Below are positions 3,623 to 50,274 of a stretch of 64,000 nucleotides of DNA, one piece after another. Origin of the DNA: a phage. The notes beneath the pieces were generated by a model. The model made no database searches, was not told the DNA's origin, and saw only the letters and a program-made list of their open reading frames with translations. The translations under genes were made by a program, and so were the position numbers. Location: the sequence record PX393110.1. One strand, 5' to 3'. Each line of letters starts with the position of its first letter. Position 1 is the first letter of the stretch.

Positions 3623-3666
3623 AAAAATAGGCTGTTAACCGAGGGCGTTCCCCAAGTTAACAGCCT
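3623..3666 (-). terminator. hairpin + U-run using the class-1 motif 3' block as its 5' arm
   Basis: AGGCTGTTAAC-N16-GTTAACAGCCT (11 bp) followed by ATTTTTATTT. Confidence 0.4.
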
Positions 3667-3687
3667 TTGGACCGTATTAAACGGCGG
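3657..3687 (-). promoter_or_regulatory. class-1 motif copy 0 (variant)
   Basis: Minus strand CCGCCGTTTAATACGGTCCAAAGGCTGTTAA, about 55 nt before ATG 3601. The upstream stop (3677) lies inside the motif. Confidence 0.5.
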
Positions 3688-4021
3688 CAGTCAGAAAGTT
3701 ACTGGAGATCAGGAAATCATCCAGAGCTACTTCTGTATTCTTAGGAGTATTGTCTAACTCCCACTCACCCACTCCCAGACGGATCTTAGCCACACCAGGA
3801 GCTATCTCTTCAATAGACAGCTTAGAGCCACCGATGATCTGGAGGCGAAGAGCATTTACAGCTACTGCATACCCAGAGAACGCAGTCTCTACCTGGTGAC
3901 GGAACTCCTGGTCTGAATTAACCTTAGCAGCGTAAGCAGCAGGTTCCATACCCAGTTGCTTAGCATACATCAGATGAAACATGTCCAGGTTAATCTTGTT
4001 ACCAGTAGTCTTCTTAGTCAT
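3677..4021 (-). CDS. hypothetical protein
   Basis: ORF track. GAGGAA RBS. Confidence 0.55.
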   Translation of the reverse strand: MTKKTTGNKINLDMFHLMYAKQLGMEPAAYAAKVNSDQEFRHQVETAFSGYAVAVNALRLQIIGGSKLSIEEIAPGVAKIRLGVGEWELDNTPKNTEVALDDFLISSNFLTAAV

Positions 4022-4520
4022 TTTCGATTTCCTCGGCAGTTACGCCAGTGATGTTTAAATACAGATCGGTCGGTAATTCTGGCAGGGTAGAGACATCCAG
4101 ATTCTCTACGTCCTTGGCCAGAGTTATGTGAGGAGAGTATTCCGCACTGATCTCAGACGGTACCTCCCCAGATGCACGGAGTCGATAGTTAAACGATTGT
4201 AGCAGATCGCTATCGAACGCCAGCACCAGGTAGTTAGCATTCTCACCGAAGATCTCATAGCGAGGATTCTTCAGATGAAGTTTGCTACCTACCAGATCAG
4301 CAATAGTTCCCTCATCCGGAGCACCAGTCCCCGGAGCATACATAAGGGTGCAGTGGTTATCGTGACCGGTATCGAAGTTAAGCTTATCATAATCAGCTAC
4401 TTCAGAGATAACCTGCTTAAGATTATCTATCCAGGCATCAGAGTCTGGACAGAATTTTACCGAGGAGTAACCCTCGTCCACGGACTGTACAAGTCCTAAC
4501 ACTACTTCAGCTTTATTCAT
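4014..4520 (-). CDS. 2H-phosphoesterase superfamily protein (LigT / cyclic-nucleotide phosphodiesterase-like)
   Basis: Two H-x-T/S-x motifs about 75 aa apart (NHCTLMY and PHITLAK), about 168 aa long. The ATG at 4520 lies 3 nt after the upstream stop. Confidence 0.55.
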   Translation of the reverse strand: MNKAEVVLGLVQSVDEGYSSVKFCPDSDAWIDNLKQVISEVADYDKLNFDTGHDNHCTLMYAPGTGAPDEGTIADLVGSKLHLKNPRYEIFGENANYLVLAFDSDLLQSFNYRLRASGEVPSEISAEYSPHITLAKDVENLDVSTLPELPTDLYLNITGVTAEEIEND

Positions 4521-4525
4521 TTTTA

Positions 4526-4825
4526 TCACCATGGCCATGGTAGTTTATTTTCGGGCTCCTGCCTATAGTAGGAGCATTTGATACCCAACGATTCCACAAT
4601 ACTTACAGGAATCTTATCAGTTACTTCAGAGTCTTGATAGATTGGTCCGAATACTGATACGTTTGGATCTTGCAACAGTTCAGATATTAATCCAGCCTCT
4701 TCATAAGTCTCGAAGAATGCTGCGGTGGTATCTGGATTACAGCCGAGACCGGTCCATGAGGTGTAAAACTCGTTTACTCCACAGAGAGCACCGTGCTCCT
4801 TATGCACCACTAAAAATCCCAGCAT
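4526..4825 (-). CDS. hypothetical protein
   Basis: ORF track. The start overlaps the RNase H gene end, so the exact start is uncertain. Confidence 0.45.
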   Translation of the reverse strand: MLGFLVVHKEHGALCGVNEFYTSWTGLGCNPDTTAAFFETYEEAGLISELLQDPNVSVFGPIYQDSEVTDKIPVSIVESLGIKCSYYRQEPENKLPWPW

Positions 4826-5330
4826 CTGTGTATCCTTTAAGTTTATTTCTATACTTAACCATTTCCTGCTTAGCTATCTCATCACAGAGATTATTTACTT
4901 TGTAGCGAGGATTATTGAACTTCTGATGACCTTTGACATGCTTAACCTTAATGGACTTAGGGTTAAGATCGCGAAGCATTTCCATATGCTTATCTATGAA
5001 TTCCTTTAATGCCCATTCGCAATCGCATTGGACGACTACCCTAACACCATCGAATGCTGTCTTAGTCATGGCAAACCATAGGGTCTTCATGATCCCTTCT
5101 AGCTCTGCCCAGTTATTATCTACAGCAGTAAATCCTCCGCGAGTTATATGAGCTCGCTGCTCACCAGGAAGACGAATCCATCCTCCGAAACCAGCAGCCT
5201 TACTCTTATGACAGTACGATGCATCTGAGAAGATTGTTATATAGCCCGCAGGGTCCAGACCGCGTTCGGGAGTACCCTCGAAGTGGATAACTCTACCAAC
5301 ATCTTTCTCACCGATAGCATGTTTCTTCAT
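4800..5330 (-). CDS. RNase H (type 1)
   Basis: The DEDD pattern aligns with E. coli RNase HI: FSDAS (FTDGS), AELEGI (MELMAA), QCDCEW (STDSQY), VKGH...NNLCDEIAK (VKGH..NERCDELAR). Confidence 0.75.
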   Translation of the reverse strand: MKKHAIGEKDVGRVIHFEGTPERGLDPAGYITIFSDASYCHKSKAAGFGGWIRLPGEQRAHITRGGFTAVDNNWAELEGIMKTLWFAMTKTAFDGVRVVVQCDCEWALKEFIDKHMEMLRDLNPKSIKVKHVKGHQKFNNPRYKVNNLCDEIAKQEMVKYRNKLKGYTDAGIFSGA

Positions 5331-6898
5331 TACATATCCACCGTAGTTGCCTGGAACAGACCTACCACCATTTCGTGGGACGGCTTCACGACCGGACTAT
5401 CGAAGTCAATAGAGCTGTTGATGTTCTGGTTAACCATCATCAGGCTACGTACTTCCCAGCAAGCACGATCAGTCAGTACACGGTGAATTGCTGCGGTATC
5501 ACCATCCACGTCCATGTTCTGACCACCCATCGCCATCGGAGGAACCTGAATCTCCTTACCCATGTGAGGTCTGACCTTAAATCCCCATACTGAGTAACGG
5601 TGTAGGGATGGCGCACGGTTCATGAATACCGTAGCATTTTCACACAGTCTCCAGCATACTTCCAGAGCTACTCTGGACTTATTCTTGTACATACGCTGTA
5701 CTTTATTGCTGATGTCGTACATGTTGTACCCTTCGTTAGTCGGGCCACCATATAAGTTCTCCAGCTCACCCAGGATGTCTGGCTGAAGTAATTCGTACAT
5801 CATCTTGAACGGTACACCAAGAGTATCCAGAGGAAGATGCGGAGCCGAAGTAACTACAGAACGACCAGAGTAATCAACACGCTTACCTAACAGGTTACCA
5901 CGAATGCGACCACCCTTGCCTTTAAGGTTATTGATCATCGGCTTAATCAAATTACCGCGATAGTCCTTAGTACCTTCCAGGATTAGTCCGTTAACCATCT
6001 TCTGCATTACAATAGATTCACGAGGAATCAGAGATAACAATGCTTCGCTGGCTTCAGCAGTATCACGAATACTTCTGATACGGATTGCATGGCGCAGGAT
6101 TCGCAGGTAGAGTAAGTTAGTCGGATGATACGACATTACCCCATTACTGATACCGACATCACGGTAGCTCGGAGGATTCACCAGTACTGTAGTGTTATAG
6201 AAGTCGCTGAACTCCGTATAACCACTATTGACTACTGTAGGATCTTCACACTCTTCGATATAGGCTTTCATATCGGCGTGGTTAGCTACCAATGCCTGGA
6301 TAAGACTCAGGAGACCTAATTCCGATGACTCATGCTCGGACATACGACGGATCTTAATCATTACTACTGCGAGGCGCTTCGTGCTATCCTGAACTGGGAT
6401 AGTATTAGAGTAGAACATCGCATACTTCTCACGATCTTCATATTCCGGAAGAGCTGCATTAGACTCACGAACCCGCTCCCGATCATCACCAACCATCTTA
6501 GCTGCCAAACCAGCTTCCTGAACTACGAAGCGGTATCTACCGATAAGGAACTGACCGAACTCTCTCTCTGGAAACCCGAATAACGCAGCCATACGTTTGA
6601 TAGCTAATGGATTCACATAAGGAACGATCGTCTCGATGTGACCCATACGGCGGCGACGGGATTCACGATGCATCGCTACCATACCGCATACATTACACGG
6701 AGGAGCTCCCATAACCAGCTGGTTACCACACTCACACTTACCAGTTACCAGAGGTCCGAATATTCGCTGGCAGAATAGCCCACCAGTGAATGGCTTAGGA
6801 TCATGGAACTTAAGATTATACATGCCCATGTTGGTTACTTCACCACTGGACTCGGCACGGATTACAGCATCAGTTGCAATAGATAACTTTAATTTCAT
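5330..6898 (-). CDS. multisubunit RNA polymerase beta-prime, N-terminal half
   Basis: GLFCQRIFGPLVTGKCECGN (Zn ribbon), RRRRMGHIE, NRAPSLHRYSVWGF, and the catalytic loop NMDVDGD (NADFDGD with all three Asp kept). All are collinear with the N-terminal half of bacterial RpoC. Confidence 0.85.
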   Translation of the reverse strand: MKLKLSIATDAVIRAESSGEVTNMGMYNLKFHDPKPFTGGLFCQRIFGPLVTGKCECGNQLVMGAPPCNVCGMVAMHRESRRRRMGHIETIVPYVNPLAIKRMAALFGFPEREFGQFLIGRYRFVVQEAGLAAKMVGDDRERVRESNAALPEYEDREKYAMFYSNTIPVQDSTKRLAVVMIKIRRMSEHESSELGLLSLIQALVANHADMKAYIEECEDPTVVNSGYTEFSDFYNTTVLVNPPSYRDVGISNGVMSYHPTNLLYLRILRHAIRIRSIRDTAEASEALLSLIPRESIVMQKMVNGLILEGTKDYRGNLIKPMINNLKGKGGRIRGNLLGKRVDYSGRSVVTSAPHLPLDTLGVPFKMMYELLQPDILGELENLYGGPTNEGYNMYDISNKVQRMYKNKSRVALEVCWRLCENATVFMNRAPSLHRYSVWGFKVRPHMGKEIQVPPMAMGGQNMDVDGDTAAIHRVLTDRACWEVRSLMMVNQNINSSIDFDSPVVKPSHEMVVGLFQATTVDM

Positions 6899-6913: not shown

Positions 6914-7633
6914 TCAAGGCTTAGCGACGACAGTATAGGCTTCACGAACGATTTCACGAGCTACTTTAGCCGCATGCTGAGTACCACAATACTGATGCAT
7001 GTATTTGAACTGCACAGGTTGCTGCTGGCGAAGATGATTGATATAGCGACGAAGAGTAGGATGGGTGACACTCTGGTCAGCACCACTCACTACCATCATA
7101 AACGCAAACATCTTCAAACTAGCTTCGCGTTTAGCAGGATATTTCTGCATGATGTAATCGATTACACCGTTCACCAGGAGCTTCAGATCACGAGAACGCG
7201 CTATGGGTGATTTCTGGTCTGGGCTAATGGAAGCAGGATCGATTAATTCCACACGACTTTCGCCATCATCGTCCGTTACGAGAGTAGACTCGTTAAAGGA
7301 CATTATGTGACGACGATCCATCGTTTCTTTATCTTCGTGACGAGTATCACCAGTTTTAGCCATATAACCAGTTGGGTTAACTACCCGAAGATACTCATGC
7401 GACACGATAGAGTCGGCAACGTATGGATTATTATTAACACGAGCAATGTTACGGTCTAGCGAACGTAAATCTCCTGAATCTAATGCGCTATCATAGAAGG
7501 ATAAGTCGATGTACTCGTCCCCAGTGTTAGCAATGTTGAATGTTTCATGGAACTTATAGTTAGCGGTCATTGGTCTATCCCAATTAGAGAATTCAAAGAG
7601 CGACCGCGAGGCCGCTCGGTTACCTGCTATCAA
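6914..7633 (-). CDS. hypothetical protein between the two beta-prime halves
   Basis: ORF track. A TTG start overlaps the upstream TGA (alternative ATG at 7570). No motif recognised. Confidence 0.45.
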   Translation of the reverse strand: MIAGNRAASRSLFEFSNWDRPMTANYKFHETFNIANTGDEYIDLSFYDSALDSGDLRSLDRNIARVNNNPYVADSIVSHEYLRVVNPTGYMAKTGDTRHEDKETMDRRHIMSFNESTLVTDDDGESRVELIDPASISPDQKSPIARSRDLKLLVNGVIDYIMQKYPAKREASLKMFAFMMVVSGADQSVTHPTLRRYINHLRQQQPVQFKYMHQYCGTQHAAKVAREIVREAYTVVAKP

Positions 7634-7968: not shown

Positions 7969-8075
7969 AGTATTAGCTCCAAATTAGATTATCCAGTGAA
8001 GCGCTACCGCGCCCCACCCAAAAGAACGGGCTTTATGAGCTCCCAAAAATCGGTTATTTGAAAAATAAATTTCAA
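7969..8075 (-). promoter_or_regulatory. class-2 cassette b
   Basis: Core 8008..8040 TAAAGCCCGTTCTTTTGGGTGGGGCGCG, then hairpin GCGC-GGTA-GCGC, TAATTTGGAGCTAATACT and the ATG. AT-rich inverted repeat upstream. Confidence 0.55.
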
Positions 8076-8776: not shown

Positions 8777-10291
8777 TTATTTGTTATTCAGATTTAACCC
8801 AGCAATGATCATCTCGGAACGGGTTCCGAAGCTAACATCACCATTAAGCACTGCCGAGGTAAGACGCTGCTTAACGTTACCGTGGCCAATAGACTTCAAC
8901 CAGCTAGGGTGCTTCGTAGGGATAGCATCAGCTTTAATCGCCAGTACCTCACCCTTATCACCCATGCTGCGAACACCGATTCGTCCGTTATTCATCTTAA
9001 CCAGATCAGTACAACCACGAGCAATGATCTCATGGTGAATCGATGCGATACCGATACCGATGTCGTCGAAGATGTGCTTAAGCTGGATTGATGCTAGCTC
9101 TGCACCCTTAATAGCCGACCCAGCTTCGTGAGCAAGATCCGTGATGCACTTATACTTAGACTCGGATACCTGAGCTACCGCAGTACCTCTACCACCTACC
9201 GTCTTCAGGATGTCAGCCAAGGTATTACTTACCGAAGTACCGAATTCCTTAAGAGTAGTCGAGCCAGATGTATGCTTACCACGAAGACCAGCCTGGGTAG
9301 ATGGTTCGGAGATATGCTGCGCCGACGCCGTTCCAATACCGAAGTTAATCGGGAAGAAGTTAGCTGGTTTAGCCGGATCCATACCGCAGCAATGCTGACA
9401 TACCCCACCCTTAGTCGATTCACAGGTAATCGGGCTAAGGACTTTAACGTTACCCTCTTCATCAGCTAACTGATCAACATTCTCCTTAGTGATCAGTACT
9501 CGATCATTAGTGAATCGATACAGTGCCGATTTCTTAGGTAGGGTAATCACTTCCTTAGTTCCGCAATCTTCTTCCACAATAGACAGCTCACGAGAGCAGT
9601 TAACCAGCTGACGAGCGAACCAGCCAGTCGCAGGTACCAGGAAGAAGTTACCAGCCAGACCCTTACGAGCAGGTCCGCAGGTGTTGAAGTAGTTGATAGG
9701 AGACAACCCGGAGCTTAAGTTCTCCATAATCGGCATCGGCATGATCTTACCAGTCATACCTACCAGAAGACCCTTAGCTACTACCATCGAGCGAACCTGG
9801 GGAGGAGATACACGAGCGCCAGATACACCCATCGCATACAGAGGATTATGACGGTCTACCTCTTTGAACCAGCGATCAGTACATTCGTTGATCACCTTAT
9901 CAGCAGCCACCAGACGATCCTCGTACTTCATCTTACCGAGTTCCTGGGTCATTGATGGGAAGTCGATACCGAAGTCAAACTTAGTGTCGTCATAGCACAA
10001 GCTAAGTCCAGACATAGTTGCTTTATGGAACCCGAACTGCTGCAACTTATGGAGTCTACGCCCAGCTACTTCCGGAGTGTAGTTATTATTGATGTGAGAG
10101 ACGATCTTCGCAGATTCCTTCTTATCGATTTCTTTTTCTGGAAGATAGCCACTGATTTCCCAAATAAACAGTCGACCGATAGTAGTTTCTTTAGGACCAT
10201 CAGAGAAGTAAAAACGCACCGGAGTGGTGTAGGTTGCTTCTTTCATATCAATAAGACGGTGTAATTCATTCAAGGACTTTGATACGATCAT
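8777..10291 (-). CDS. multisubunit RNA polymerase beta-prime, C-terminal half
   Basis: TTIGRLFIWEI, GLSLCYDD, SGARVSPPQVRSMV, bridge-helix-like CGPARKGLAGNF..TGWFARQLVN, EEDCGT, GVCQHCCG, trigger-loop-like AQHISEPSTQ, and C-terminal EMIIAGLN. All are collinear with the C-terminal half of RpoC. Confidence 0.85.
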   Translation of the reverse strand: MIVSKSLNELHRLIDMKEATYTTPVRFYFSDGPKETTIGRLFIWEISGYLPEKEIDKKESAKIVSHINNNYTPEVAGRRLHKLQQFGFHKATMSGLSLCYDDTKFDFGIDFPSMTQELGKMKYEDRLVAADKVINECTDRWFKEVDRHNPLYAMGVSGARVSPPQVRSMVVAKGLLVGMTGKIMPMPIMENLSSGLSPINYFNTCGPARKGLAGNFFLVPATGWFARQLVNCSRELSIVEEDCGTKEVITLPKKSALYRFTNDRVLITKENVDQLADEEGNVKVLSPITCESTKGGVCQHCCGMDPAKPANFFPINFGIGTASAQHISEPSTQAGLRGKHTSGSTTLKEFGTSVSNTLADILKTVGGRGTAVAQVSESKYKCITDLAHEAGSAIKGAELASIQLKHIFDDIGIGIASIHHEIIARGCTDLVKMNNGRIGVRSMGDKGEVLAIKADAIPTKHPSWLKSIGHGNVKQRLTSAVLNGDVSFGTRSEMIIAGLNLNNK

Positions 10292-11817: not shown

Positions 11818-11941
11818 AATTAGCTCCAAATTATAACGAACCGTGAAGCGGCCAACCCGCCCCACCCAAAAGAACGGGCTTTAGGACCTCTCAGAGTTCG
11901 TTTTATTTTTCAAAAACATTTCAATAATGAAAAATATTTTT
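11818..11941 (-). promoter_or_regulatory. class-2 cassette d
   Basis: Core 11857..11887 TAAAGCCCGTTCTTTTGGGTGGGGCGG, then hairpin GCGG-GTTGG-CCGC and TAATTTGGAGCTAATT. 12-bp AT inverted repeat ATTTTTCAAAAA/TTTTTGAAAAAT upstream. Confidence 0.55.
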
Positions 11942-11965
11942 GAAAAATAGGCCATCCTTGGCCTA
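11942..11965 (-). terminator. intrinsic terminator
   Basis: UAGGCCA-AGGA-UGGCCUA followed by UUUUUC, 6 nt after the stop at 11971. Confidence 0.6.
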
Positions 11966-11970
11966 ATGAA

Positions 11971-13422
11971 TCAGCGAGCTTTGCTGATTGCCTGGGTAAT
12001 ACGTTGGGACTGTTTACGCCAGGATTGCTGCAGACGAGGATTAAGCTTCATGATTACAGACATAATCATGGCCAGTACTCCACGCTTAGCCTTAGGACTA
12101 CCAGACTTAGCATCCTTCAGGTATTTACGAGCCACAGTTTTAATATCCTGGGATGGCCAGGTCTTAACGACTGGTGACTTAACCTGCTTAGCCAGCGCTA
12201 CGAAGATGACCAGAGTGCTGATAAGGTCGGAGGTACGTACAGAACCTTTACCGCCCATCAGTACTTCGATAACCTTGTTAACGCGACGGAGCACTTCCGA
12301 CGGAGCCGCTTCGTCTACTCCCTCAGGCATAGCCGTACTCTCAGCAGCAGATAGCTTCCAGGAGTTAGCAGTAGCCATATCGGTAGTGTAGCATGCGGAC
12401 AGATCATCGTCGGATGCTTCGGACAGATTCATGAACTCGTTCTTAGTCGGGTTCCAAACCATGTCCTTGTACTTAATGTACCAGCGACCACCATCGTCTT
12501 TGATCATATCAGGGACTTCTCCCTTAGACAGATCTTCGTTGACAGATCGTCCCATCAACCAGCGGTAAACAGGTTTCAGATCCCAGCGACCGTCAGGAGT
12601 AACCTTCACATCCTGGCCAGTCAGATCCTTAATTACCTGAGTTACGTTATCGCCAGTCTGGTTGATCTTATGGTTAGTCACCAGCTGCGCTACGGACTTC
12701 TTATTACCCTGATCGTCGGTACGTTCTGCACCACGTAAGATCATGGTGGAGTTAATCTGGTCCATAGTGAATCCAGCATCGATAAGACGCTTGATCTGAG
12801 CCATGACCTGATCATACTCCTTCGGTAGATCGTCCACAAACTCGTTGAGCTGCAGACCAGCACCACTCGTCATGCTACCACGACCTGCCGCATCACCAGT
12901 AATCAATCGGGCAATTACCACTAGCTTAGAGCTGGAAGATAGTTTAGGATGGTTGATAAACTTATCTAAAAAATCGTTTATCGTAGTGATCTCTTCAGGG
13001 TTATTATTTCTGTTGCTGGCAGCCAACTCTGTGAACATACCCATAGCAGAACCATCCGGAGTCTCATAAGCATCCATCATGTTCAGCTGGGTAGAGCCAC
13101 CTTCGCCATCTTCCGCAAAGAATGCATCAGCAGAGAACGTACCAGAACGAACTTCTTTCTGTACGAACTCTCGTAGCAAATTCTTAGCCATCTGCTGGGG
13201 CATCATCATAAGATAAGAATAGTAGTCACGCAGGTTAGCATCACTGGTATTCTGCATCTTGCGGAACATAGTATACCATTGACTGCTCTTACCATTCTTC
13301 TCGATGTCAGCGACAGCGTGATCAATCATACGCTGGTCGATGAAACGCTCTACCGAGGCTAGATCCTCGTCCACTATTTGTTCACTCATCAACAGAGTGA
13401 GTAAATTTTGGGCCTTAGTCAT
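11971..13422 (-). CDS. hypothetical protein (483 aa)
   Basis: ORF track. The ATG at 13422 has a GGAG RBS. A terminator hairpin follows the stop. No motif recognised. Confidence 0.6.
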   Translation of the reverse strand: MTKAQNLLTLLMSEQIVDEDLASVERFIDQRMIDHAVADIEKNGKSSQWYTMFRKMQNTSDANLRDYYSYLMMMPQQMAKNLLREFVQKEVRSGTFSADAFFAEDGEGGSTQLNMMDAYETPDGSAMGMFTELAASNRNNNPEEITTINDFLDKFINHPKLSSSSKLVVIARLITGDAAGRGSMTSGAGLQLNEFVDDLPKEYDQVMAQIKRLIDAGFTMDQINSTMILRGAERTDDQGNKKSVAQLVTNHKINQTGDNVTQVIKDLTGQDVKVTPDGRWDLKPVYRWLMGRSVNEDLSKGEVPDMIKDDGGRWYIKYKDMVWNPTKNEFMNLSEASDDDLSACYTTDMATANSWKLSAAESTAMPEGVDEAAPSEVLRRVNKVIEVLMGGKGSVRTSDLISTLVIFVALAKQVKSPVVKTWPSQDIKTVARKYLKDAKSGSPKAKRGVLAMIMSVIMKLNPRLQQSWRKQSQRITQAISKAR

Positions 13423-13458
13423 TATTTTCTCCAATATGTCGACATAAAAGGATGATGA

Positions 13459-17834: not shown

Positions 17835-17844
17835 GTTTAACTCC

Positions 17845-23335: not shown

Positions 23336-23361
23336 ACTAAAAAGGCTGGTGTAAATGTGAA

Positions 23362-34380: not shown

Positions 34381-34384
34381 CTAA

Positions 34385-43820: not shown

Positions 43821-44339
43821 TTACTCCTCTTTACTCTGGTAAAGTAACTGGACATCTGCCGCATTCTCGACATATTCCTGAGCTATACGAATAGCCCTAA
43901 CGACCATAGCCTTCTCTCCCCAGCTTAAGAACTCAGGAGTAGCGGCCATCTTAACGATCAACTCACGAGACAGATCTTCGATACACTTAATCTTGTTCGA
44001 GACCTTAGGAAACGCGAGTCTGTTATTGATGGTGATACGATCAGCAGGAATCTGGGTGAAGGTCTCGCCGAACAGTCTATCGAAATCTCCGATGTCGAGT
44101 TCAGTGAAGTAACCCTTACCTTCTTCCGTATCAAATATCCCATGAACTACTACGTTCTGTCGGATAGACACATTTAGTAAGTACTTAGAGTTCAGTAAGA
44201 TAACGTAGATACTCGAATAGCTTCGGAGATCACGTTTCCATGCTGATAACGACTCAGTAGGTGAGCCTTTGTATTCTACTCCCGAATTAAGAAGCATCTT
44301 AGCAAATGGGTCTAGGCTGTTAATTACTACAGTACTCAT
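43821..44339 (-). CDS. hypothetical protein
   Basis: ORF track 43821..44360. The ATG at 44339 has an AAGGAG RBS, 24 nt after a class-1 motif. Confidence 0.5.
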   Translation of the reverse strand: MSTVVINSLDPFAKMLLNSGVEYKGSPTESLSAWKRDLRSYSSIYVILLNSKYLLNVSIRQNVVVHGIFDTEEGKGYFTELDIGDFDRLFGETFTQIPADRITINNRLAFPKVSNKIKCIEDLSRELIVKMAATPEFLSWGEKAMVVRAIRIAQEYVENAADVQLLYQSKEE

Positions 44340-44363
44340 TGTATTCTCCTTGGGTGCCACAGT

Positions 44364-44394
44364 TTAACAGCCTTTCGACGCTAATTAAAGGTGG
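44364..44394 (-). promoter_or_regulatory. class-1 motif copy 11 (variant)
   Basis: CCACCTTTAATTAGCGTCGAAAGGCTGTTAA, 24 nt before ATG 44339. The upstream stop lies inside the motif. Confidence 0.5.
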
Positions 44395-44696
44395 TCTTTA
44401 ACAGTTCCCAGAATATTATCTCTGGTATGGATTACGCCACTACGATTGGCTTCAATACGTGTGGTAGCTACTATTTCAAATACTTCTAATTGGATAGTAG
44501 GATGAATCATGCAAGTACGGATCAACATAGACAGAGCATCTTCGTAGCTCTGATAACCAGTCGCGTTCTTGTGATTATCCTGCCAAAGTCTATCTGTCGC
44601 CTGAGCTCGCTCCGAGATGTAAGAGATCTTACCATCTTTCATCTGACCAACACAATACTTAGCTTCAGAACTATCTGAAATATGTAACGTTTCCAT
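44385..44696 (-). CDS. hypothetical protein
   Basis: ORF track. AGGAG RBS. Its stop lies inside a class-1 motif. Confidence 0.5.
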   Translation of the reverse strand: METLHISDSSEAKYCVGQMKDGKISYISERAQATDRLWQDNHKNATGYQSYEDALSMLIRTCMIHPTIQLEVFEIVATTRIEANRSGVIHTRDNILGTVKDHL

Positions 44697-44739
44697 AATT
44701 TCTCCTAATGGGGAGTTTTACCTCCCCTGAGTAAACATA

Positions 44740-44988
44740 TTAGAATGGGCGGTGACGAGATTCCGTTACCTGAAGACCTTCGAAGATCTTACCAACGAAG
44801 TCAAAGCTTACACCATCTTCTACCGATGTAATCTTGACACTATTGGTATCATCGATCTTCTGACCAGTCGCCAGGAGGCCGTTGGGGAGGACTACGCCTA
44901 CGAATTCACGAGTATCAGGTGGTCTACGGAAGTGTTTCTTCCCAGCAGGTTTCTTGTGTCTCGAGAACGGATTATTATTATAAGGCAT
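44740..44988 (-). CDS. hypothetical protein
   Basis: ORF track. GAGGAG RBS. Confidence 0.5.
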   Translation of the reverse strand: MPYNNNPFSRHKKPAGKKHFRRPPDTREFVGVVLPNGLLATGQKIDDTNSVKITSVEDGVSFDFVGKIFEGLQVTESRHRPF

Positions 44989-45349
44989 TGTCTAGCTCCT
45001 CTTTTATAGTATGATCTTTGTACATTCTTAAACTATACGGGTTCTCTATCTCTTCGAATTGAAGACCATCGAATCCATGTATCATGTTAGCGAATCGCAT
45101 ATTATACATGGTAATCCTGATCTGCCAAATCATAGAATTAGAGGCTTTACGGAATACTTTACACGGCTCACTAACTACAGCACCCTGGATCTTCTTTAGC
45201 TCGTTAACGATGTTCGACACATCTTCAAGTTCGCAATATGACTGAAAGATCCGTGATGGACATCGTCTTATTTGACTAACGTCTGAACCATACATAATTT
45301 TTACACAACGAGTAGATTGAACACAGAAGGACGTTGGATACGCCTCCAC
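44978..45349 (-). CDS. hypothetical protein (start uncertain)
   Basis: ORF track. A GTG start lies 4 nt after a class-1 motif. The alternative ATG at 45295 lacks a clear RBS. Confidence 0.35.
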   Translation of the reverse strand: MEAYPTSFCVQSTRCVKIMYGSDVSQIRRCPSRIFQSYCELEDVSNIVNELKKIQGAVVSEPCKVFRKASNSMIWQIRITMYNMRFANMIHGFDGLQFEEIENPYSLRMYKDHTIKEELDNAL

Positions 45350-45353
45350 CGCT

Positions 45354-45384
45354 TTAACAGCCTTTTAGGTCATTAAAACGGCGG
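45354..45384 (-). promoter_or_regulatory. class-1 motif copy 12
   Basis: CCGCCGTTTTAATGACCTAAAAGGCTGTTAA, 8 nt after the GT32 stop. Confidence 0.55.
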
Positions 45385-45392
45385 AGTTCAGA

Positions 45393-46184
45393 TCAATACC
45401 GTGGGTCGGTATCCTGATAATCGCGAATCAAGTCATAGACGAGCACATCCAGACGAGTAGCATCTTCACGCTTCATGCGGGTAGGTCTGTACATATGAAT
45501 ACATACACAGTGCTTAGACCATACCTTAGCAGTCTGACGTTCCGTAAGTTCTTTACGGTCGACGATGTACTTCTCGAATGCGTGATAAGAGATAGGCTTT
45601 GATACTTCGATATATTGGCACATATCGAGGAATTGCGGGTAGTCGTCAGTCAGGTAACGACTGAATACATCCTGGTAATAGGAGTAGTTAGGGAACTTAC
45701 CACCATTTTCCAGAGATAAAGCATGAGTCTCTATCTCCTTCAGCATCAGAGACATGAATGCCTGATTATTGCTGGGGGAGGTCCACATGTTGATTTCGCA
45801 GTAGTCTAACCGAGGGGAATAAACGCGTACCTGAGTCTCGTGAGGAGTGTAGGTTTCGTGAGGGCTTCGGATAAAGAGTGTATCAGCATCAACATAGGAG
45901 TAACCACGAAGATCCATCATTACCTGAATCTTGAGTCGCAGGTAATCACATACAGAGGCCATCTTAGCCTTAGTCTTCAGGATATTATACGCTTTCTCCA
46001 TGATAGGATCTCTGGCGAATAAATCCTGGATCATAATGCATCGGCACCCTTCGATAATGTTTTCAGTATTATCGATCACCAGCACATGGTCCTTAGGTCC
46101 ATATTTCTGTAAGGATTTAATGCATTCCCGAACATGGATAGGCATCTTTGGTCCTACCCAAAGCTGGAAATAATTCTGACTCAT
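45393..46184 (-). CDS. GT32-like (DXD, Gly_transf_sug-type) glycosyltransferase
   Basis: QLWVGPKMP..., MASVCDYLRLKIQVMMDLRGYSYVDADTLF (family pattern SD..R...L...GG.Y.D.D). GAGGT RBS. Confidence 0.55.
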   Translation of the reverse strand: MSQNYFQLWVGPKMPIHVRECIKSLQKYGPKDHVLVIDNTENIIEGCRCIMIQDLFARDPIMEKAYNILKTKAKMASVCDYLRLKIQVMMDLRGYSYVDADTLFIRSPHETYTPHETQVRVYSPRLDYCEINMWTSPSNNQAFMSLMLKEIETHALSLENGGKFPNYSYYQDVFSRYLTDDYPQFLDMCQYIEVSKPISYHAFEKYIVDRKELTERQTAKVWSKHCVCIHMYRPTRMKREDATRLDVLVYDLIRDYQDTDPRY

Positions 46185-46818
46185 AGTTACCTCTATGTTA
46201 TTTATTTTAAACTGGATAGGGACCTAATAGAGTAAATTAGTAAATAAATACTTATTAGTTACCTCTTACCTATGCTAAGGGAAGCGTACTCGAGGAGTAC
46301 AGAGGCTTAGCGAAAGAGCGGAGTAACACCTTTATCCCAATTAGTCAAAGTAGAGAGCGAAGGAGTCGCGCCCGCTTGAGGCGGCGCGACCTCCGCTTCA
46401 CCAATCCTACCGGATGAGCGCCTGCGACCACCCGAGCCTACCCCTGCATCACTCTCTAAAGCCACTTCGGGCTTTACCTCGTTCTGCTACGCGATACGCA
46501 GGCGATAGCTACACTAAGTCCCCTGGAGATGGCTAGTAAGCATCCGCTACCAGTCATATCCAACCTAACATTGGCGAAGCCAGGGACTAGGCACTCCGCG
46601 CCAATAAGCTACATTAGGATTTATGTCCGTATTCGAAGATAGGCCGATCGGTGAGACTATGCATTCATCTCTGCTCAACCAGGAAGCGCCGATTAGGGTA
46701 AATACCCAAACTACCTTCTTAATGTCACTCCTCCCAGACCGCTTCGGGACTTAGCTTAAGTCATATCCGAATAATCTGGCATCTACGACGGACCGTAGTG
46801 TATGGAGCGTACTGCAAT
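46185..46818 (-). other. 634-nt ORF-free, highly structured leader / candidate large ncRNA
   Basis: No ORF of 60 aa or more on either strand. A class-1 motif sits at its 5' end. Contains many GC-rich helices (details in findings). Confidence 0.35.
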
Positions 46819-46848
46819 TTAACAGCCTTTCGATTCATCAAAAGAGCG
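46819..46848 (-). promoter_or_regulatory. class-1 motif copy 13
   Basis: CGCTCTTTTGATGAATCGAAAGGCTGTTAA. It points into about 630 nt of ORF-free sequence before ATG 46184. Confidence 0.55.
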
Positions 46849-46982
46849 TAATTAGGGACCCGATTATTCCACTTAGCTGCCATCCGTTCGGGTCAACACA
46901 GATCGTTCCAGGTCTTAGGCATCATACCAGACCGTTTCAGTACACTCGGATTATTAGTTCCCGGTGACCATTTAAAGATGGT

Positions 46983-47055
46983 GGCCCATACTGGTTTCGA
47001 ACCAGTGACCAATCGATTATGAGTCGACTGCTCTCACCACTGAGCTAATGGGCCG
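46983..47055 (-). tRNA. tRNA with CAU anticodon (Met elongator or Ile2/lysidine type)
   Basis: Hand-folded cloverleaf: acceptor GGCCCAT/ATGGGCC, D arm GCTC..GAGC, anticodon arm GTCGA-CTCATAA-TCGAT, T arm ACTGG-TTCGAAA-CCAGT, discriminator A. CCA is not encoded. Confidence 0.85.
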
Positions 47056-47199
47056 AACTGGTCGGGACCGTGGCCCACACTAGAGGATTTGCCAAACTCC
47101 CCATTATCATGGCCTAAGCCATCCAGACAGCCGTGACTACCCTGCTCCGGTACATGTGATAATGGGGACGTATCCAAAAATGTGGAGATCCCGTTAAGG
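47056..47199 (-). other. 144-nt structured inter-tRNA spacer
   Basis: 11-bp stem CCCCATTATCA (47100-10) / TGATAATGGGG (47158-68) enclosing the hairpin ATGGC-CTAA-GCCAT. No T-loop, so it is not a tRNA. Confidence 0.4.
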
Positions 47200-47276
47200 T
47201 GGTACTCCCTACAGGATTCGAACCTGTGACCAATAGCTTAGAAGGCTACTGCTCTATCCAGCTGAGCTAAGGGAGC
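47200..47276 (-). tRNA. tRNA-Arg (UCU)
   Basis: Hand-folded cloverleaf: acceptor GCTCCCT/AGGGAGT, D arm GCTC..GAGC, anticodon arm GTAGC-CTTCTAA-GCTAT, T arm ACAGG-TTCGAAT-CCTGT, encoded CCA. Confidence 0.85.
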
Positions 47277-47457
47277 TTATTAATTCTTCTACCTGCTTAA
47301 CAGATTTATTCATGCCTGTTCCGTGACACTCCCCGCAGACCCAAGTCCGACAGAAGATATCACCAGGCTCAGCATCGTCACACTCTCCTAAACCTCCACA
47401 TTCTGGACATTTAGCTTCATTAACAATACTTCTTAGCTTATGAAAAGTAGTTTCCAT
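47254..47457 (-). CDS. DnaJ-type zinc-finger mini-protein
   Basis: Two CxxCxGxG repeats (CPECGGLG, CGECHGTG) plus CRTWVC. GGAGG RBS. The last 23 nt overlap the 5' part of tRNA-Arg. Confidence 0.55.
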   Translation of the reverse strand: METTFHKLRSIVNEAKCPECGGLGECDDAEPGDIFCRTWVCGECHGTGMNKSVKQVEELISSLSSAG

Positions 47458-47473
47458 AAATCCTCCATTTTAG

Positions 47474-47541
47474 GATGACCTCTTAGCTTACCATCGCGAA
47501 AAGCTACATGGAGTGTAGTTAACGTGAACTAAGAGGTCATC
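47474..47541 (-). repeat. 13-bp perfect inverted repeat between two small genes
   Basis: GATGACCTCTTAG (47474-86) / CTAAGAGGTCATC (47529-41), with the inner hairpin CTACA-TGGAG-TGTAG. It ends 5 nt before the GGAGG RBS of ORF 47254..47457. Confidence 0.5.
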
Positions 47542-47547
47542 ATAAAA

Positions 47548-47649
47548 TCAGCTATTGAAAGCTAATATAATACTGTCCCAACCATCTACATAAATTGCGT
47601 TGGCTACATATAATACGAAGAATATAGCAACGACTATTGGATTAATCAT
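47548..47649 (-). CDS. 33-aa single-pass membrane peptide
   Basis: Internal ATG of ORF 47548..47757 with an AGGAG RBS: MINPIVVAIFFVLYVANAIYVDGWDSIILAFNS (hydrophobic helix). Confidence 0.4.
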   Translation of the reverse strand: MINPIVVAIFFVLYVANAIYVDGWDSIILAFNS

Positions 47650-47989
47650 CGTACTCTCCTGAGAAATATTATCCTGCTTACTGTTACAGGGACGCCGTTC
47701 GTCGCGCCAGATTACCAATCGGCGATTAAGCCGATCTCGCCAACCGCGTAACGCCATTGGCTGGTATCACATAGGCTTGTAGCCCTCAGTCAACCTGTCC
47801 TGAGGAGGTAGGAAGAGCCATACGCCAAATCCGGGATTGATAGTCCCATATAGCTTCCTACTTTGCCATTCTCGTATGGCCTCGGATACGACTGTCTCTG
47901 GGTAAGGAGTCCCGACAGCTGATACGGTTTAGTTTATTTTTAATTTGAGTCCCACTCATACCTTACAGACTCAAGCACTGCAGACCACC
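47650..47989 (-). other. ORF-free structured region upstream of the membrane-peptide gene
   Basis: Long-range 8-bp stem GCCATACG/CGTATGGC (47817-24 / 47873-80). Hairpins ATCGGC/GCCGAT, CCTCAG/CTGAGG and CTGTC/GACAG. Confidence 0.3.
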
Positions 47990-48019
47990 GAAAAACCGAC
48001 TGGTACGCTAGCAGTCGGT
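47990..48019 (-). terminator. intrinsic terminator about 30 nt downstream of class-1 copy 14
   Basis: ACCGACUG-CUAGCGUAC-CAGUCGGU followed by UUUUCGG. Confidence 0.55.
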
Positions 48020-48046
48020 CCCACGGATCCCATGAACAACTTATGA
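47990..48046 (-). ncRNA. candidate ~55-nt small RNA (class-1 motif to terminator)
   Basis: Bounded by class-1 copy 14 and the terminator at 47990..48019. The only ORF inside is 20 codons with no RBS. Confidence 0.25.
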
Positions 48047-48050
48047 CAAT

Positions 48051-48080
48051 TTAACAGCCTTTCGAGTCATCAAAAGAGTG
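48051..48080 (-). promoter_or_regulatory. class-1 motif copy 14
   Basis: CACTCTTTTGATGACTCGAAAGGCTGTTAA, followed about 30 nt later by a hairpin plus U-run. Confidence 0.55.
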
Positions 48081-48232
48081 TTAAGTTGCCCGCTCCCTAT
48101 CACCGAGCACTGTGATGATGGGAAATAGGGAGCGAAACGATTCCTAAGTTTTATCTTCTTCTCTAAGTGATTAACCGTTACATACGATATACCTTCTTAG
48201 TTAGATAAGCCGGAATTGGCACTTCGAACACT

Positions 48233-48263
48233 TTAACAGCCTTTCGACCGTACAAAAGAGCGG
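48233..48263 (-). promoter_or_regulatory. class-1 motif copy 15
   Basis: CCGCTCTTTTGTACGGTCGAAAGGCTGTTAA. In tandem with copy 16, 58 nt apart. Confidence 0.55.
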
Positions 48264-48268
48264 CGTAA

Positions 48269-48811
48269 TTAGACGCTCGCCTCAGACACTTTAACAGCCT
48301 TTGGAACTGTAAAAAGAGCGGGTTTATACCATTCGGGAGTGCGGTAGAAAGTAATGGTACGACCCTCTTTCTCCCAGATATAGTATTTATCGTTCAGGTA
48401 GTTACGATACTTCTCGTAAACTGTTTCGCCAGGAGCACCTGCCACACACGCATAAGGTGTCATGTCAGTCTCCGGACCGACCTTCAAGTTCTTAGGCAGT
48501 TTGCTGAGTCGCGACAGAATAATATCTGTGGCATGCATACGACCGGTACGTTCATAGAACAGGATACACAGATAGTTAGCCAGCTCTTTAACGAAGTTGT
48601 AGTTACCGGAAGATTCACGGACCCAGCGTGCTGATGGGTGATTTACGTGAGTCTGTTTGTAAATACCCTCGATAGCTTGATCGCCATCCAGAACATGATG
48701 AGCTGTGGACAACAGCTGAGCACATTCGATAATCATTTTATTCTGGTGCATTGGCATACAATGGTCCATAGCACATTCTAACGCATCTTCGTGAGTACGG
48801 AAAATATTCAC
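48269..48811 (-). CDS. hypothetical protein, possibly pyrimidine-dimer DNA glycosylase (DenV/Pyr_excise)-like
   Basis: GTG start with AGGAG RBS. The pattern K..IEC.QLL...H.......YK.TH.NHPS.RW and C-terminal PEWYK loosely recall the DenV-related family. The last 12 codons are a class-1 motif. Confidence 0.35.
   Translation of the reverse strand: MNIFRTHEDALECAMDHCMPMHQNKMIIECAQLLSTAHHVLDGDQAIEGIYKQTHVNHPSARWVRESSGNYNFVKELANYLCILFYERTGRMHATDIILSRLSKLPKNLKVGPETDMTPYACVAGAPGETVYEKYRNYLNDKYYIWEKEGRTITFYRTPEWYKPALFTVPKAVKVSEASV
48291..48321 (-). promoter_or_regulatory. class-1 motif copy 16
   Basis: CCGCTCTTTTTACAGTTCCAAAGGCTGTTAA. It lies inside the last codons of ORF 48269..48811. Confidence 0.5.
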
Positions 48812-48897
48812 TATAATTACTCCTAACGTGGTTTGCTTACTTTAAGTCTCTCGTAAAAGATTTAGAGTAAGCATCGGAGGTAACCACCTCCGACACT

Positions 48898-48928
48898 TTA
48901 ACAGCCTTTCGACGGTACAAAAGAGCGG
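48898..48928 (-). promoter_or_regulatory. class-1 motif copy 17
   Basis: CCGCTCTTTTGTACCGTCGAAAGGCTGTTAA, 86 nt before GTG 48811. Immediately followed by the hairpin TCGGAGG/CCTCCGA. Confidence 0.6.
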
Positions 48929-48930
48929 TT

Positions 48931-49086
48931 TTAAATCTTACATGCGTCCCCGCAGTCGTCGTCACCAGGCTGGCTGATAACTTCGTCTACGTTAACCATG
49001 CGATCTTCGACACGCTTAGATGCTTCGTCGAGTTCTTCCTGAGAAGGAATATTATTGAAGTCCAACTCTTCAGCAGATTTGCTCAT
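48931..49086 (-). CDS. small acidic hypothetical protein (51 aa)
   Basis: Internal ATG of ORF 48931..49299 with GAGGAA RBS (MSKSAEELDF...). It follows the upstream stop at 49094. Confidence 0.4.
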   Translation of the reverse strand: MSKSAEELDFNNIPSQEELDEASKRVEDRMVNVDEVISQPGDDDCGDACKI

Positions 49087-49093
49087 AGTTTCC

Positions 49094-49414
49094 TCATAAG
49101 AACATTTTGACAAGATGTTTAGTACCGTTGATAGCAGCTTTCTTAGCAGCCGACTTAACATGAGCTTTAACTTTCTTATGTAAAGTCTTGGACTTAGCCT
49201 TATTTTTAAGGAGTCGTCCGGCAGCTTTAGCCCTACGCTTGATTCTGTTAGCTGATTCGGAAATAGCAATACCTTCCTCATCAGTAACATCATCAACATT
49301 AGACGAAGCTATCATCAGTAACTGATCATCGGTTAAACCAGCTGCTATGGTTTTGACGAATATTCCTTCATCGACATCACCAACAGCATTAAGGAGATCC
49401 TGTGATTTTGACAT
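49094..49414 (-). CDS. hypothetical protein with Lys-rich C-terminus
   Basis: ORF track 49094..49429, ATG at 49414. Confidence 0.45.
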   Translation of the reverse strand: MSKSQDLLNAVGDVDEGIFVKTIAAGLTDDQLLMIASSNVDDVTDEEGIAISESANRIKRRAKAAGRLLKNKAKSKTLHKKVKAHVKSAAKKAAINGTKHLVKMFL

Positions 49415-49883
49415 AATCTTCCCATACATTAATTACTTCCTTACCCAGAGATTTAGCATGGGTTACACAGTTACCTGTACCACCCTTGCTGCCATCCCAT
49501 AAGGCTAATCCCTTCTGACTACGGTTAACCATGTAACGGTTACGCACCATCATCTTGAAAGAATCATACCCAGGCTCGGAAACTATAATTGTGCGACGAC
49601 TTCTCCTGCAGAGCTCAGTCCATTTTTCTACATCTGCAGATCGCCACATCTTGGGCTGGTCAATCATAGGGACTGCTGCGAAATATGGTATTCCGAGGTT
49701 AGCACATGCTTGAGCACATGCCATGTCCCATCCTAAAGCCATACCCACGAACCAGCAGTCGACCTTATTTTCTTCGGTCAACCTCTGGATATGATGTTCG
49801 GCAAACTGGGTAAGCTGATCATGGCTAAAGATATCCCAGCCACCCAGTTTATCTGGCCTATGACCAGTGACGAACATAAACAT
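49389..49883 (-). CDS. SLOG-superfamily protein (YpsA/DUF1273-like)
   Basis: FVTGHRPDKLGG..., VDCWFVGMALGWDMACAQA..., GLALWDGSKGGTGN parallel B. subtilis YpsA (VTGYKPFELG, WILISGQLGVELWAAEA, LLLLYDPEKEGSP). Confidence 0.5.
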   Translation of the reverse strand: MFMFVTGHRPDKLGGWDIFSHDQLTQFAEHHIQRLTEENKVDCWFVGMALGWDMACAQACANLGIPYFAAVPMIDQPKMWRSADVEKWTELCRRSRRTIIVSEPGYDSFKMMVRNRYMVNRSQKGLALWDGSKGGTGNCVTHAKSLGKEVINVWEDYVKITGSP

Positions 49884-50224
49884 TACTTCTTCTCTATCTT
49901 GGCCTGCTTAGCCTTAACTAAAGCCAATGCGTTAGCCAGTTTAGCAGAAGTATCCTGCGGACCATCTTCTTCGAGCTGTTTCTTCAGGGACTCCATACGA
50001 TCGGTAGTCCCTTTAGTATCCATCTCGATTAATTCGTTGATGGTCGACCCGCCGACGTTAGGTAACTTGCCGAGTTGCGACAAATCCTTAACTTCGGGGA
50101 TCTTAACGTGAAGTTGAATAGACTGGGATGCTCTCGCGAATGACCCAGCACGACGATTGTCTCCTACCTTATTATATAGGGAAGATAGGTTACCCAGGAA
50201 CGTAATGATATCAGCAGTTTTCAT
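49883..50224 (-). CDS. helix-hairpin-helix protein resembling the Pol X 8-kDa (dRP-lyase) domain
   Basis: ATG at 50224 with GGAGG RBS. IITFLGNLSSLY...RRAGSFARASQSI...LGKLPNVGGSTINELIE..TKGT parallels the Pol beta N-terminus (ITDMLTELANFE...NAYRKAASVI...[20 protein letters not shown]). Confidence 0.45.
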   Translation of the reverse strand: MKTADIITFLGNLSSLYNKVGDNRRAGSFARASQSIQLHVKIPEVKDLSQLGKLPNVGGSTINELIEMDTKGTTDRMESLKKQLEEDGPQDTSAKLANALALVKAKQAKIEKK

Positions 50225-50243
50225 ATTTGATTCCTCCAACGGT

Positions 50244-50274
50244 TTAACAGCCTTTGGACCTTACAAAAGAGCGG
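50244..50274 (-). promoter_or_regulatory. class-1 motif copy 18 (first leftward unit at the divergent junction)
   Basis: CCGCTCTTTTGTAAGGTCCAAAGGCTGTTAA, only 19 nt before ATG 50224. No co-oriented gene lies upstream of it, so a promoter is required here. Confidence 0.7.

Follow-up and report, generated by a model that had tools for sequence, protein, structure and literature searches.

The phage DNA analysed here, a 64,000-nucleotide stretch of record PX393110.1 (the window, by which we mean this whole stretch), is organized in two divergent arms. From position 50364 on, the plus strand encodes terminase, capsid, and tail proteins, and from 50239 down the minus strand encodes helicases, an SbcCD-like nuclease, topoisomerase II, a BCCT (betaine/carnitine/choline) transporter, a 5-hydroxymethyldeoxyuridine (5-hmdU) DNA kinase, a thymidylate-synthase-like enzyme, a family A DNA polymerase, and a beta-prime subunit of RNA polymerase (RNAP) split into two genes. 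Distributed among the minus-strand genes are nineteen copies of a bipartite motif, CCGCTCTTTT-N9-AAAGGCTGTTAA, which we regard with good confidence as a promoter of some kind. The window has only two close relatives in the phage collection, the Escherichia myophage vB_EcoM_IME392 (116 kb; ~97% identity over positions 1-25000 and 89% over 44000-52000) and EP_H11 (111 kb; ~94% and ~88% over the same intervals). The thymidylate-synthase-like and 5-hmdU DNA kinase genes belong to a thymidine hypermodification set (21480-24333 and neighbors) whose dCTP deaminase and dUTPase genes lie outside the window, and because this set is present, the conserved thymines of the motif are probably modified bases in virion DNA. 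EP_H11 and IME392 are among the phages with predicted hypermodified thymidine (preprint 10.1101/2025.03.26.645540), and IME392 has been grouped with YerA41 by its DNA polymerase (PMC12686479).

A pattern search of the window for CCGCTCTTTT-N9-AAAGGCTGTTAA with at most three mismatches returned 17 matches, all on the minus strand, against an expectation of 0.00 from 100 shuffled sequences. Searching for the 12-nt core with at most one mismatch added the copies at 25441-25471, a TTAC variant, and 44364-44394, which brings the set, here called class I, to 19, all on the minus strand. We derived a 45-column weight matrix from these copies and scored both strands of the window; the 19 copies score 42-63 bits, the remainder of both strands scores no more than 12, and the best shuffled score is -5. 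As nothing else exceeds 12 bits, the class I set is therefore closed at exactly 19, with no degenerate extra copies. The lone near-match on the plus strand (3627-3638) was rejected as a twentieth copy, being the inverted partner of the copy at 3657.

The conserved class I footprint spans about 45 nt and reads AA, block 1, N9, block 2, RnTGT, nGGAGG. The information profile places block 1 at positions 1-10 and the invariant block 2 at positions 20-31. Upstream, the flank is A-rich (A at -3 and at -2 in 13 of 19 copies each), and within the nominal spacer T17 and C18 are conserved, with GATGA opening five of the spacers. Downstream of block 2, conservation continues through R32 (18/19), T34 (17/19), G35 (19/19), T36 (15/19), and A40 (18/19), with G41 and G42 in 12 of 19 copies each; information drops to background beyond the interval from -3 to +42. 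The spacer measures 9 nt and the orientation matches that of the minus-strand genes in every copy. In 15 copies a start codon follows 19-86 nt downstream, and tRNA genes or ORF-poor sequence (ORF, open reading frame) come after the remaining four (48291, 48233, 48051, and 46819). In five copies the upstream ORF terminates inside the motif, its stop codon ending at position 10-12, and in eight others the stop codon is no more than 8 nt ahead of the motif, so that genome packing is very tight. An initial annotation of the window, made from its letters, had described nineteen minus-strand copies between 3657 and 50274, a fixed spacer, orientation with the genes, start codons 19-86 nt downstream in most cases, and stop codons falling inside the motif, all of which our searches bear out; the core coordinates that it gave also agree with ours, and its motif length of 30-31 nt falls short of the conserved footprint.

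The copy at 50244-50274 (57.6 bits) heads the non-structural arm at the divergent junction, as the annotation had recognized. The first non-structural ATG (50224) is 19 nt downstream, and upstream there is neither a co-oriented gene nor a sigma70-like site. The copy at 48898-48928 (63.4 bits) begins 2 nt after the upstream stop codon and is followed, from motif position 32, by a strong hairpin whose loop is changed in IME392 and EP_H11 and whose stem is kept. Between 48321 and 46185, three copies fall within 270 nt (48291-48321; 48233-48263, in tandem 58 nt past the former; and 48051-48081), followed by tRNA-Arg(TCT) at 47200-47276, tRNA-Met(CAT) at 46979-47054, a further copy at 46819-46849, and a GC-rich, ORF-poor stretch of 634 nt (46185-46818). 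That stretch contains no ORF longer than 52 amino acids (aa) and has no Rfam match, and its fold z-score is -0.9; the region may specify a non-coding RNA. The two tRNAs are the only Rfam matches over 44000-50400. A tRNA gene requires a promoter and lacks a ribosome-binding context, so the three class I copies that precede them favor a promoter reading of the motif.

Farther along the arm are the copies at 45354-45384, at 44364-44394, which has a degenerate block 1 (CCACCTTTAA), an upstream stop codon inside the motif, and an ATG 25 nt downstream, and at 39157-39187. The copy at 33712-33742 precedes the topoisomerase II genes, with the upstream TGA ending at motif position 12. A terminator-like hairpin and T-run (30407-30432) lie ahead of the copy at 30362-30392, and a hairpin (29559-29588) lies ahead of the TTAG variant at 29521-29551. 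The copy at 27180-27210 overlaps the stop codon of the transporter gene, that at 23305-23335 lies downstream of the 5-hmdU DNA kinase gene, and that at 21449-21479 abuts the stop codon of the thymidylate-synthase-like gene. Copies at 17865-17895 and 14264-14294 precede, respectively, the family A DNA polymerase gene (14547-17846) and a homing-endonuclease-like ORF together with an orphan gene, o487. In the last copy (3657-3687), block 2 forms the 5' arm of a 12-bp terminator hairpin (whole element 3619-3668, partner strand 3627-3638, followed by a T-run). With a transcription start downstream of TTAA, such an overlapping terminator and promoter would stop read-through RNA and spare RNA begun at this copy.

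Two of these neighborhoods contain unusual cargo. The BCCT transporter gene (27199-28581) is full-length (Pfam E = 4e-92), lies amid replication genes, and is kept in IME392 and EP_H11. The 241-aa ORF at 13459-14184 matches an endonuclease family (PHROG 681) and is not found at that position in IME392, the sequence of which diverges directly after the motif ahead of the ORF; it is probably a mobile homing endonuclease.

A second class of element, missed in the initial annotation, was found through L086, a metagenomic relative at moderate divergence (59% identity in o487) that carries the class I core together with a second element, AAAGCGAGTTCTTTTGG. The counterpart in the window, AAAGCCCGTTCTTTTGG, occurs on the minus strand at 2908-2924, 8018-8034, 11866-11882, and 34283-34299 (four found against 0.2 expected), and the full class II element reads tTTTTCAAATAAaCGAtTTtTG-N9-AAAGCCCGTTCTTTTGG-GTGGGGCG. 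Block 1 is CCGATTTTTG in class II versus CCGCTCTTTT in class I, and the spacer is 9 nt in both. The two classes share 11 of 17 block-2 positions (AAAG, C25, G27-T29, T34, and G35), so that class II retains an AAAG-C-GTT-N4-TG core and differs from class I at the remaining positions; a joint pattern, CGNTNTTT-N10-AAAG, covers both classes with 12 matches against 0.08 expected.

The four class II copies are placed as follows. That at 34283-34318 (block 1, N9, TAAGCCCGTTCTTTTGG) has a terminator ahead of it (34357-34381) and a GC hairpin directly after it; that at 11866-11901, also behind a terminator (11943-11966), heads the operon containing the C-terminal half of beta-prime; that at 8018-8053 heads the operon containing the gene o239 and the N-terminal half of beta-prime; and that at 2908-2943, a TTGTGG variant, heads a cluster of small ORFs. 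Class II elements are placed in the same way in L086, in front of beta-prime operons and small-ORF clusters. An intrinsic terminator thus stands directly ahead of two of the four copies, and all four are directly followed by a GC-rich hairpin that begins at the first G after TTTTGG and differs in sequence between copies while keeping its pairing.

In the complete genomes of IME392 and EP_H11, class I is represented by 25 and 24 copies, respectively, which are confined to the ~73-kb non-structural arm and to its strand, the structural arm having none; class II is represented by five copies in each. Orthologous class I copies of the three genomes diverge by 0.3% in block 2, by 1.7% in block 1, by 5.9% in the spacer, and by ~12% in the flanks, the last figure being inflated by the ungapped comparison; this gradient shows the motif to be under purifying selection. 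Identification of the motif as replication or priming sites or selfish repeats was rejected given its strictly intergenic, gene-oriented placement and its absence from the late arm, and a REP/MITE-like repeat (repetitive extragenic palindrome or miniature inverted-repeat transposable element) was rejected because the copies have one orientation, none is palindromic, and their positions are conserved between genomes. The motif is likewise not an intrinsic terminator as such: only the copy at 3657 lies within a hairpin of that kind, and only the copy at 27180 is followed by one.

A search for a comparable promoter motif in the late arm gave only a weak TTTA(n)CAGGACG, common to the two largest gaps of that arm (50314-50328 and 57582-57598), and a TAGTCAG that is not specific. 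The second gap also contains a sigma70-like TTGACA-N18-TAAATT (57554-57583). Neither TTTA(n)CAGGACG nor this sigma70-like site could be established as a late promoter.

Related motifs occur in more distant phages that have a homologous beta-prime. Full-length homologs of the beta-prime N-terminal half were found by tblastn in Ab1-TPeters (Acinetobacter, 38% identity), RP13 (Ralstonia, 35%), the Vibrio phages 1.031.O, Va2, and 150E35-1, and the RHph_TM rhizobiophages, with weaker matches in YerA41 and Carin-5. Ab1-TPeters has a two-arm genome like that of the window phage and contains a class A motif, CTGTYTCTTAA-N9-AAAACCTGTT-N4-TGT-nGGG, with 13 of 14 matches on the non-structural strand, as well as a second class with the same downstream half and the upstream block AAACTCAAAATTGAG. 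The RP13 motif is ACGACGCTAT-N9-AGACCTTGT. In Va2 the motif takes a shorter form with different spacing, GAACCY-N5-ACCTTGCT, 30-45 nt before start codons, and L086 has both of the classes seen in the window. The architecture and a CC(T)TG(T)T-type core are thus kept across phages of four host genera, while the exact sequence shifts with the phage lineage. The specificity of sigma70 is the same in all four hosts, and a motif that varies with the lineage of the phage therefore points to a phage-encoded, co-evolving reader rather than to host sigma70. Searching IMG/VR for AAAGGCTGTTAANNTGT yielded 70 single chance matches and no multi-copy contigs, and simple k-mer counts over a 41-kb stretch of YerA41 (30.9% GC) gave no comparable repeated motif; the YerA41 papers predict only sigma70-type promoters, by BPROM.

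The beta-prime encoded in the window is bacterial-like. The N-terminal half of beta-prime (5330-6898, minus strand, 522 aa) matches E. coli beta-prime chains in PDB with E = 4e-50 and retains the catalytic aspartates (NMDVDGD), and the C-terminal half is encoded at 8777-10291 (minus strand, 504 aa); with E. coli RpoC as query, the two halves are matched at E = 1e-52 and 3e-25, the latter value being that of the C half. The gene is split in this way in IME392/EP_H11, Ab1, and RP13, and is a single gene in Va2. In the 62831-64678 region of Ab1-TPeters the N-terminal gene ends at NAD, just before the catalytic DFDGD, and resumes ~350 nt on in a small ORF matching RpoC (E = 8e-6), which suggests an intervening element or a further split.

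No partner for this subunit was found. Searches with E. coli RpoB and RpoD (phmmer --max, E<=10) gave no match among ORFs of at least 50 aa in the complete genomes of IME392, EP_H11, and Ab1-TPeters. YerA41 does encode a beta subunit (E. coli RpoB match at 7e-46), and this protein, searched in the same manner, likewise found no match in the three complete genomes. When the YerA41 beta was compared by tblastn to 50,697 phage records, the matches were to YerA41, Carin-5, Arash, some vibriophages, and AR9- and phiKZ-like phages, with none to IME392, EP_H11, Ab1-TPeters, RP13, Va2, 1.031.O, or RHph_TM. Two Pfam scans of 10 proteins each likewise gave no beta, Rpb2 and sigma families were also absent among the best 25 of 55 Pfam families matched by 88 further EP_H11 ORFs, and phmmer revealed no second beta-prime paralog of the kind expected from virion and non-virion sets as in phiKZ. 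This clade of 110-207 kb phages, which includes IME392/EP_H11, Ab1-TPeters, RP13, Va2, Vibrio 1.031.O, and RHph_TM, thus encodes a bacterial-like, catalytically intact beta-prime without beta; thymidine-modification genes are present in several members, among them IME392/EP_H11 and RP13. A catalytically intact beta-prime needs a beta partner, and the simplest inference is a hybrid with the beta, alpha, and omega subunits of the host.

Comparison of the phage and E. coli beta-prime sequences hints that the partner of this subunit may not be sigma70. Three residues of the E. coli beta-prime coiled-coil, R275, E295, and A302, which are important for sigma70 binding, are all different in the phage protein in an approximate MAFFT alignment. 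The gene o487 (11971-13434, minus strand) is an unproven candidate for an accessory or specificity factor. It is an orphan conserved near beta-prime in phages of E. coli, Acinetobacter, and, weakly, Vibrio (Va2), as well as in L086, and its family has 28 representatives among 1.8 billion proteins. Profile searches gave no PDB match, Pfam no match across 25 family members, and fold comparison nothing either, so that a beta- or sigma-like identity was rejected; a first AlphaFold model was poor (predicted local distance difference test score, pLDDT, 54.6) and a second reached 69.8. The gene o239 (6914-7633, minus strand) lies directly upstream of the N-terminal half of beta-prime, a placement shared with Ab1-TPeters and L086, and has no sequence or fold relatives. 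Alignment of the o487 and o239 families to RpoD by hhalign revealed no sigma factor, nor did Pfam and PHROGs reveal one among late-arm and early ORFs. In YerA41, the protein that the 2020 paper calls a sigma factor does not bear that annotation in the 2021 record.

Taken together, these observations lead us to favor, by a modest degree, a family of bipartite promoters whose reader would be a bacterial-type polymerase containing the phage beta-prime and a putative phage-encoded specificity factor. The 19 copies would constitute class I of this phage-specific family, which would drive the whole non-structural arm, and their output would comprise the replication, nucleotide, and thymidine-modification genes, the tRNAs, and small early ORFs. 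The reader would be a multisubunit enzyme in which the split phage beta-prime replaces that of the host, paired with host subunits because the phage has no detectable beta gene, and sequence specificity would come from a putative phage-encoded factor. The fuller version of this proposal, in which phage beta-prime, host beta, alpha, and omega, and a non-sigma specificity factor form a hybrid RNAP that reads the family on modified DNA throughout the clade, is one that we put forward tentatively, as a possibility short of an even chance.

Transcription would start ~6-9 nt after TTAA, near motif position 38. Four features bear on this estimate. The class II hairpins, whose onset likely marks the RNA 5' end, begin at what corresponds to class I register 37-38. 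The same region has a G-rich onset in each class (GGAGG in class I, GTGGGG in class II, and nGGG in Ab1 class A). At the copy at 3657, where block 2 is one arm of the terminator hairpin, a start beyond TTAA would let RNA begun there avoid termination. Lastly, a start at 38 would center block 1 at -32.5 and GCTGTTAA at -10.5, the geometry of a sigma-dependent bacterial promoter; the block centers (positions 5.5 and 27.5) are 22 bp apart, close to the ~23 bp of a generic bacterial holoenzyme, in a comparison that depends on the predicted start position. Block 1 (CCGCTCTTTT) would then extend from about -37 to -28 in the role of a -35 element and block 2 (AAAGGCTGTTAA) from about -18 to -7 in the role of a -10 element, with RnTGT as discriminator and initiation within the purine-rich nGGAGG.

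This proposal revises the initial annotation, which had read the motif as the middle-gene promoter of the phage RNAP, unlike sigma70 promoters, with the start at or inside the motif end. A phage-specific promoter that does not resemble those of sigma70 remains well founded in the behavior of the motif, its absence from the structural arm, its conservation, and its counterparts in other lineages. The phage RNAP of that reading is incomplete, as a split beta-prime was found with neither beta nor sigma in the complete relatives, and the predicted start lies beyond the motif end. A simple scheme of middle promoters served by a phage enzyme also leaves the first round of transcription unexplained, since beta-prime is itself behind class II elements, and any assignment of the family to a middle period would be provisional.

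Several considerations weigh against our own proposal as well. All non-structural genes, the beta-prime genes included, lie downstream of class I or class II elements, and the first round of transcription is out of reach of an enzyme built with freshly synthesized beta-prime. That round could be carried out by host polymerase with an injected factor or by injected phage subunits; polymerase subunits are present in YerA41 virions (PMC7354516). A sigma-like or other DNA-binding specificity factor was not found by RpoD phmmer searches, hhalign, Pfam, or PHROGs, and o487 has no recognizable fold relative. Between the copy at 27180 and the next gene stands a canonical intrinsic terminator (27131-27163; GGGGTTAGG...CCTAACCCC and a T-run), an odd order for a productive promoter. 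Most class I copies abut an upstream stop codon without a terminator and would thus be internal promoters in read-through units, where a signal acting at the RNA level could look alike. Finally, an extended -10 pattern, TGnTAnnnT, is present in 17 of 19 class I copies, with A40 (18/19) at the distance of a sigma70 start, so that the host holoenzyme may take part.

That last observation is the chief support for a reading in which TGTTAARnT (positions 26-34) serves the host sigma70 holoenzyme itself as an extended -10 element, with a start near A40, a phage activator or sigma-appropriating pair bound to AAAGGC and block 1, and no need for the phage beta-prime in recognition. This reading would solve the bootstrapping problem, as host polymerase is present at infection, and an upstream box joined to a -10-like element without a -35 recalls the middle promoters of T4. 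We nevertheless judge it unlikely. The hexamer TAARnT matches TATAAT at only 3-4 of 6 positions, and with a start at 38 class I has TGTTAA and class II has CCGTTC as the -12 to -7 hexamer, both unlike TATAAT. Class II lacks TGnTAnnnT, and Ab1, RP13, and Va2 do not conserve it or keep the A at hexamer position 2. Base-specific contacts of sigma70 do not explain the invariant AAAGGC; a scanner for sigma70 -35/-10 pairs gave no match at any of the copies, and it found canonical sigma70 sites no more often than chance predicts (27 found against 33.2 expected). The Pfam matches listed include no MotA- or AsiA-like or helix-turn-helix family, and the drift of the motif with phage lineage, set against the constancy of sigma70 in the four hosts, has been described above.

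If the motif were instead a signal within polycistronic RNA, such as a site of processing, stability, or antitermination/loading, and not a start signal, the copies that abut or overlap a stop codon without a terminator would be accounted for, being certainly transcribed by read-through; the position of copy 27180 ahead of a terminator would also fit, and the stable hairpins that follow a subset of the copies would be able to protect a processed 5' end. We consider this improbable, given that at the junction copy there is no upstream co-oriented transcript to process and that several copies stand behind terminators (class I at 30392 and 29551, class II at 34299 and 11882). A 5' hairpin is not a general feature of class I: the minimum free energy of positions 32-76 averages -8.2 kcal/mol against a background of -8.0 (p = 0.74), with strong downstream hairpins at ~5 class I copies versus all four of class II. 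Block 1 varies (for example CCGCCGTTTA and CCACCTTTAA) without compensating change in the invariant block 2, so that the partial complementarity of CTTTT and AAAGG does not amount to an RNA helix under conservation. Variation of this kind, without covariation or conserved pairing between the blocks, fits a signal recognized by protein on DNA and not an RNA structure, and two blocks held at a fixed distance of about two helical turns are a typical arrangement where duplex DNA is recognized. Such recognition could also be that of an operator, bound by a phage regulator beside separate, weakly conserved promoters. High invariance and a two-block layout are typical of sites for dimeric regulators, too, and a location at gene starts would suit one. 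The two blocks, however, do not repeat one another in either direct or inverted form, and the element always points in the direction of transcription. At a set distance beyond it come a G-rich segment and 5' hairpins, and no separate conserved promoter-like element is found nearby, information being at background beyond the footprint. We regard an operator as more improbable still.

Phage-specific promoters are known as a kind, and this family has no description in the searchable literature. It is unusually clean and long, comprises two related classes, and keeps a constant architecture in Escherichia, Acinetobacter, and Ralstonia phages, with a shorter form in a Vibrio phage. The motif allows the transcription units of these poorly annotated phages to be drawn immediately and provides an experimental handle on how a phage without beta uses its beta-prime; the beta-less polymerase gene set is, in our view, a more surprising result than the promoter element. 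A hybrid polymerase, if it exists, would represent a new viral route to taking over host transcription, and would offer an orthogonal promoter/polymerase pair and a system in which to study the transcription of hypermodified DNA.

Known phage and host systems resemble this one in part. The consensus sequences of host sigma54, sigma32, sigma28, and sigmaE, compared by eye, do not match the motif, and a hairpin promoter of the N4 virion RNAP was rejected as there is no conserved inverted repeat in positions 1-36. The promoters of the T7 group (23 bp, -17 to +6, GGGAGA) are likewise long, near-invariant, and oriented, number 15-25 per genome, and have a purine- or G-rich start; here, unlike in that group, two blocks are separated by a 9-nt spacer of variable sequence within ~45 nt, and there is no single-subunit polymerase gene. 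Accordingly, a T7-like promoter was rejected, as no T7-type RNAP family appeared in two 10-protein Pfam scans or among the 25 strongest families of the 88 EP_H11 ORFs. The phages AR9 (late promoters of the form AACA-N6-TW) and phiKZ (TATG-type promoters) also encode homologs of the large subunits and use promoters unlike those of sigma70, and in AR9 the modified, uracil-containing DNA matters for promoter recognition. Those phages, however, have highly diverged beta and beta-prime subunits, usually in two sets, a fifth subunit for specificity, and short, single-block promoters, whereas the present phage has a near-bacterial beta-prime (E of 1e-50), no beta, and a long promoter of two blocks; a promoter of the phiKZ/AR9 type was rejected because the complete IME392/EP_H11/Ab1 genomes contain no beta and the motif differs by inspection.

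The middle promoters of T4, where AsiA and MotA, by sigma appropriation, redirect the host enzyme to a MotA box at -30 and a sigma70 -10 element, provide a further parallel. They too combine a phage-specific upstream box with a -10 element at a fixed distance, serve the replication and nucleotide genes of a phage with modified DNA, and are in many cases internal to packed units. The MotA box, (a/t)(a/t)TGCTTtA, is nevertheless unrelated and absent here, block 2, which is invariant over 12 or more nt, does not read TAnnnT in class II or the relatives, and the Pfam matches listed include no MotA or AsiA homolog or related family, so that a T4 MotA promoter was rejected; unlike T4, this phage brings its own beta-prime. 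In SPO1, which has 5-hydroxymethyluracil DNA, the middle and late promoters (gp28 and gp33/34) are likewise bipartite, and a bacterial core enzyme is retargeted to thymine-substituted DNA. SPO1 achieves this by supplying sigma-family proteins to an unaltered host core, whereas here a sigma homolog is undetected and it is beta-prime that the phage supplies.

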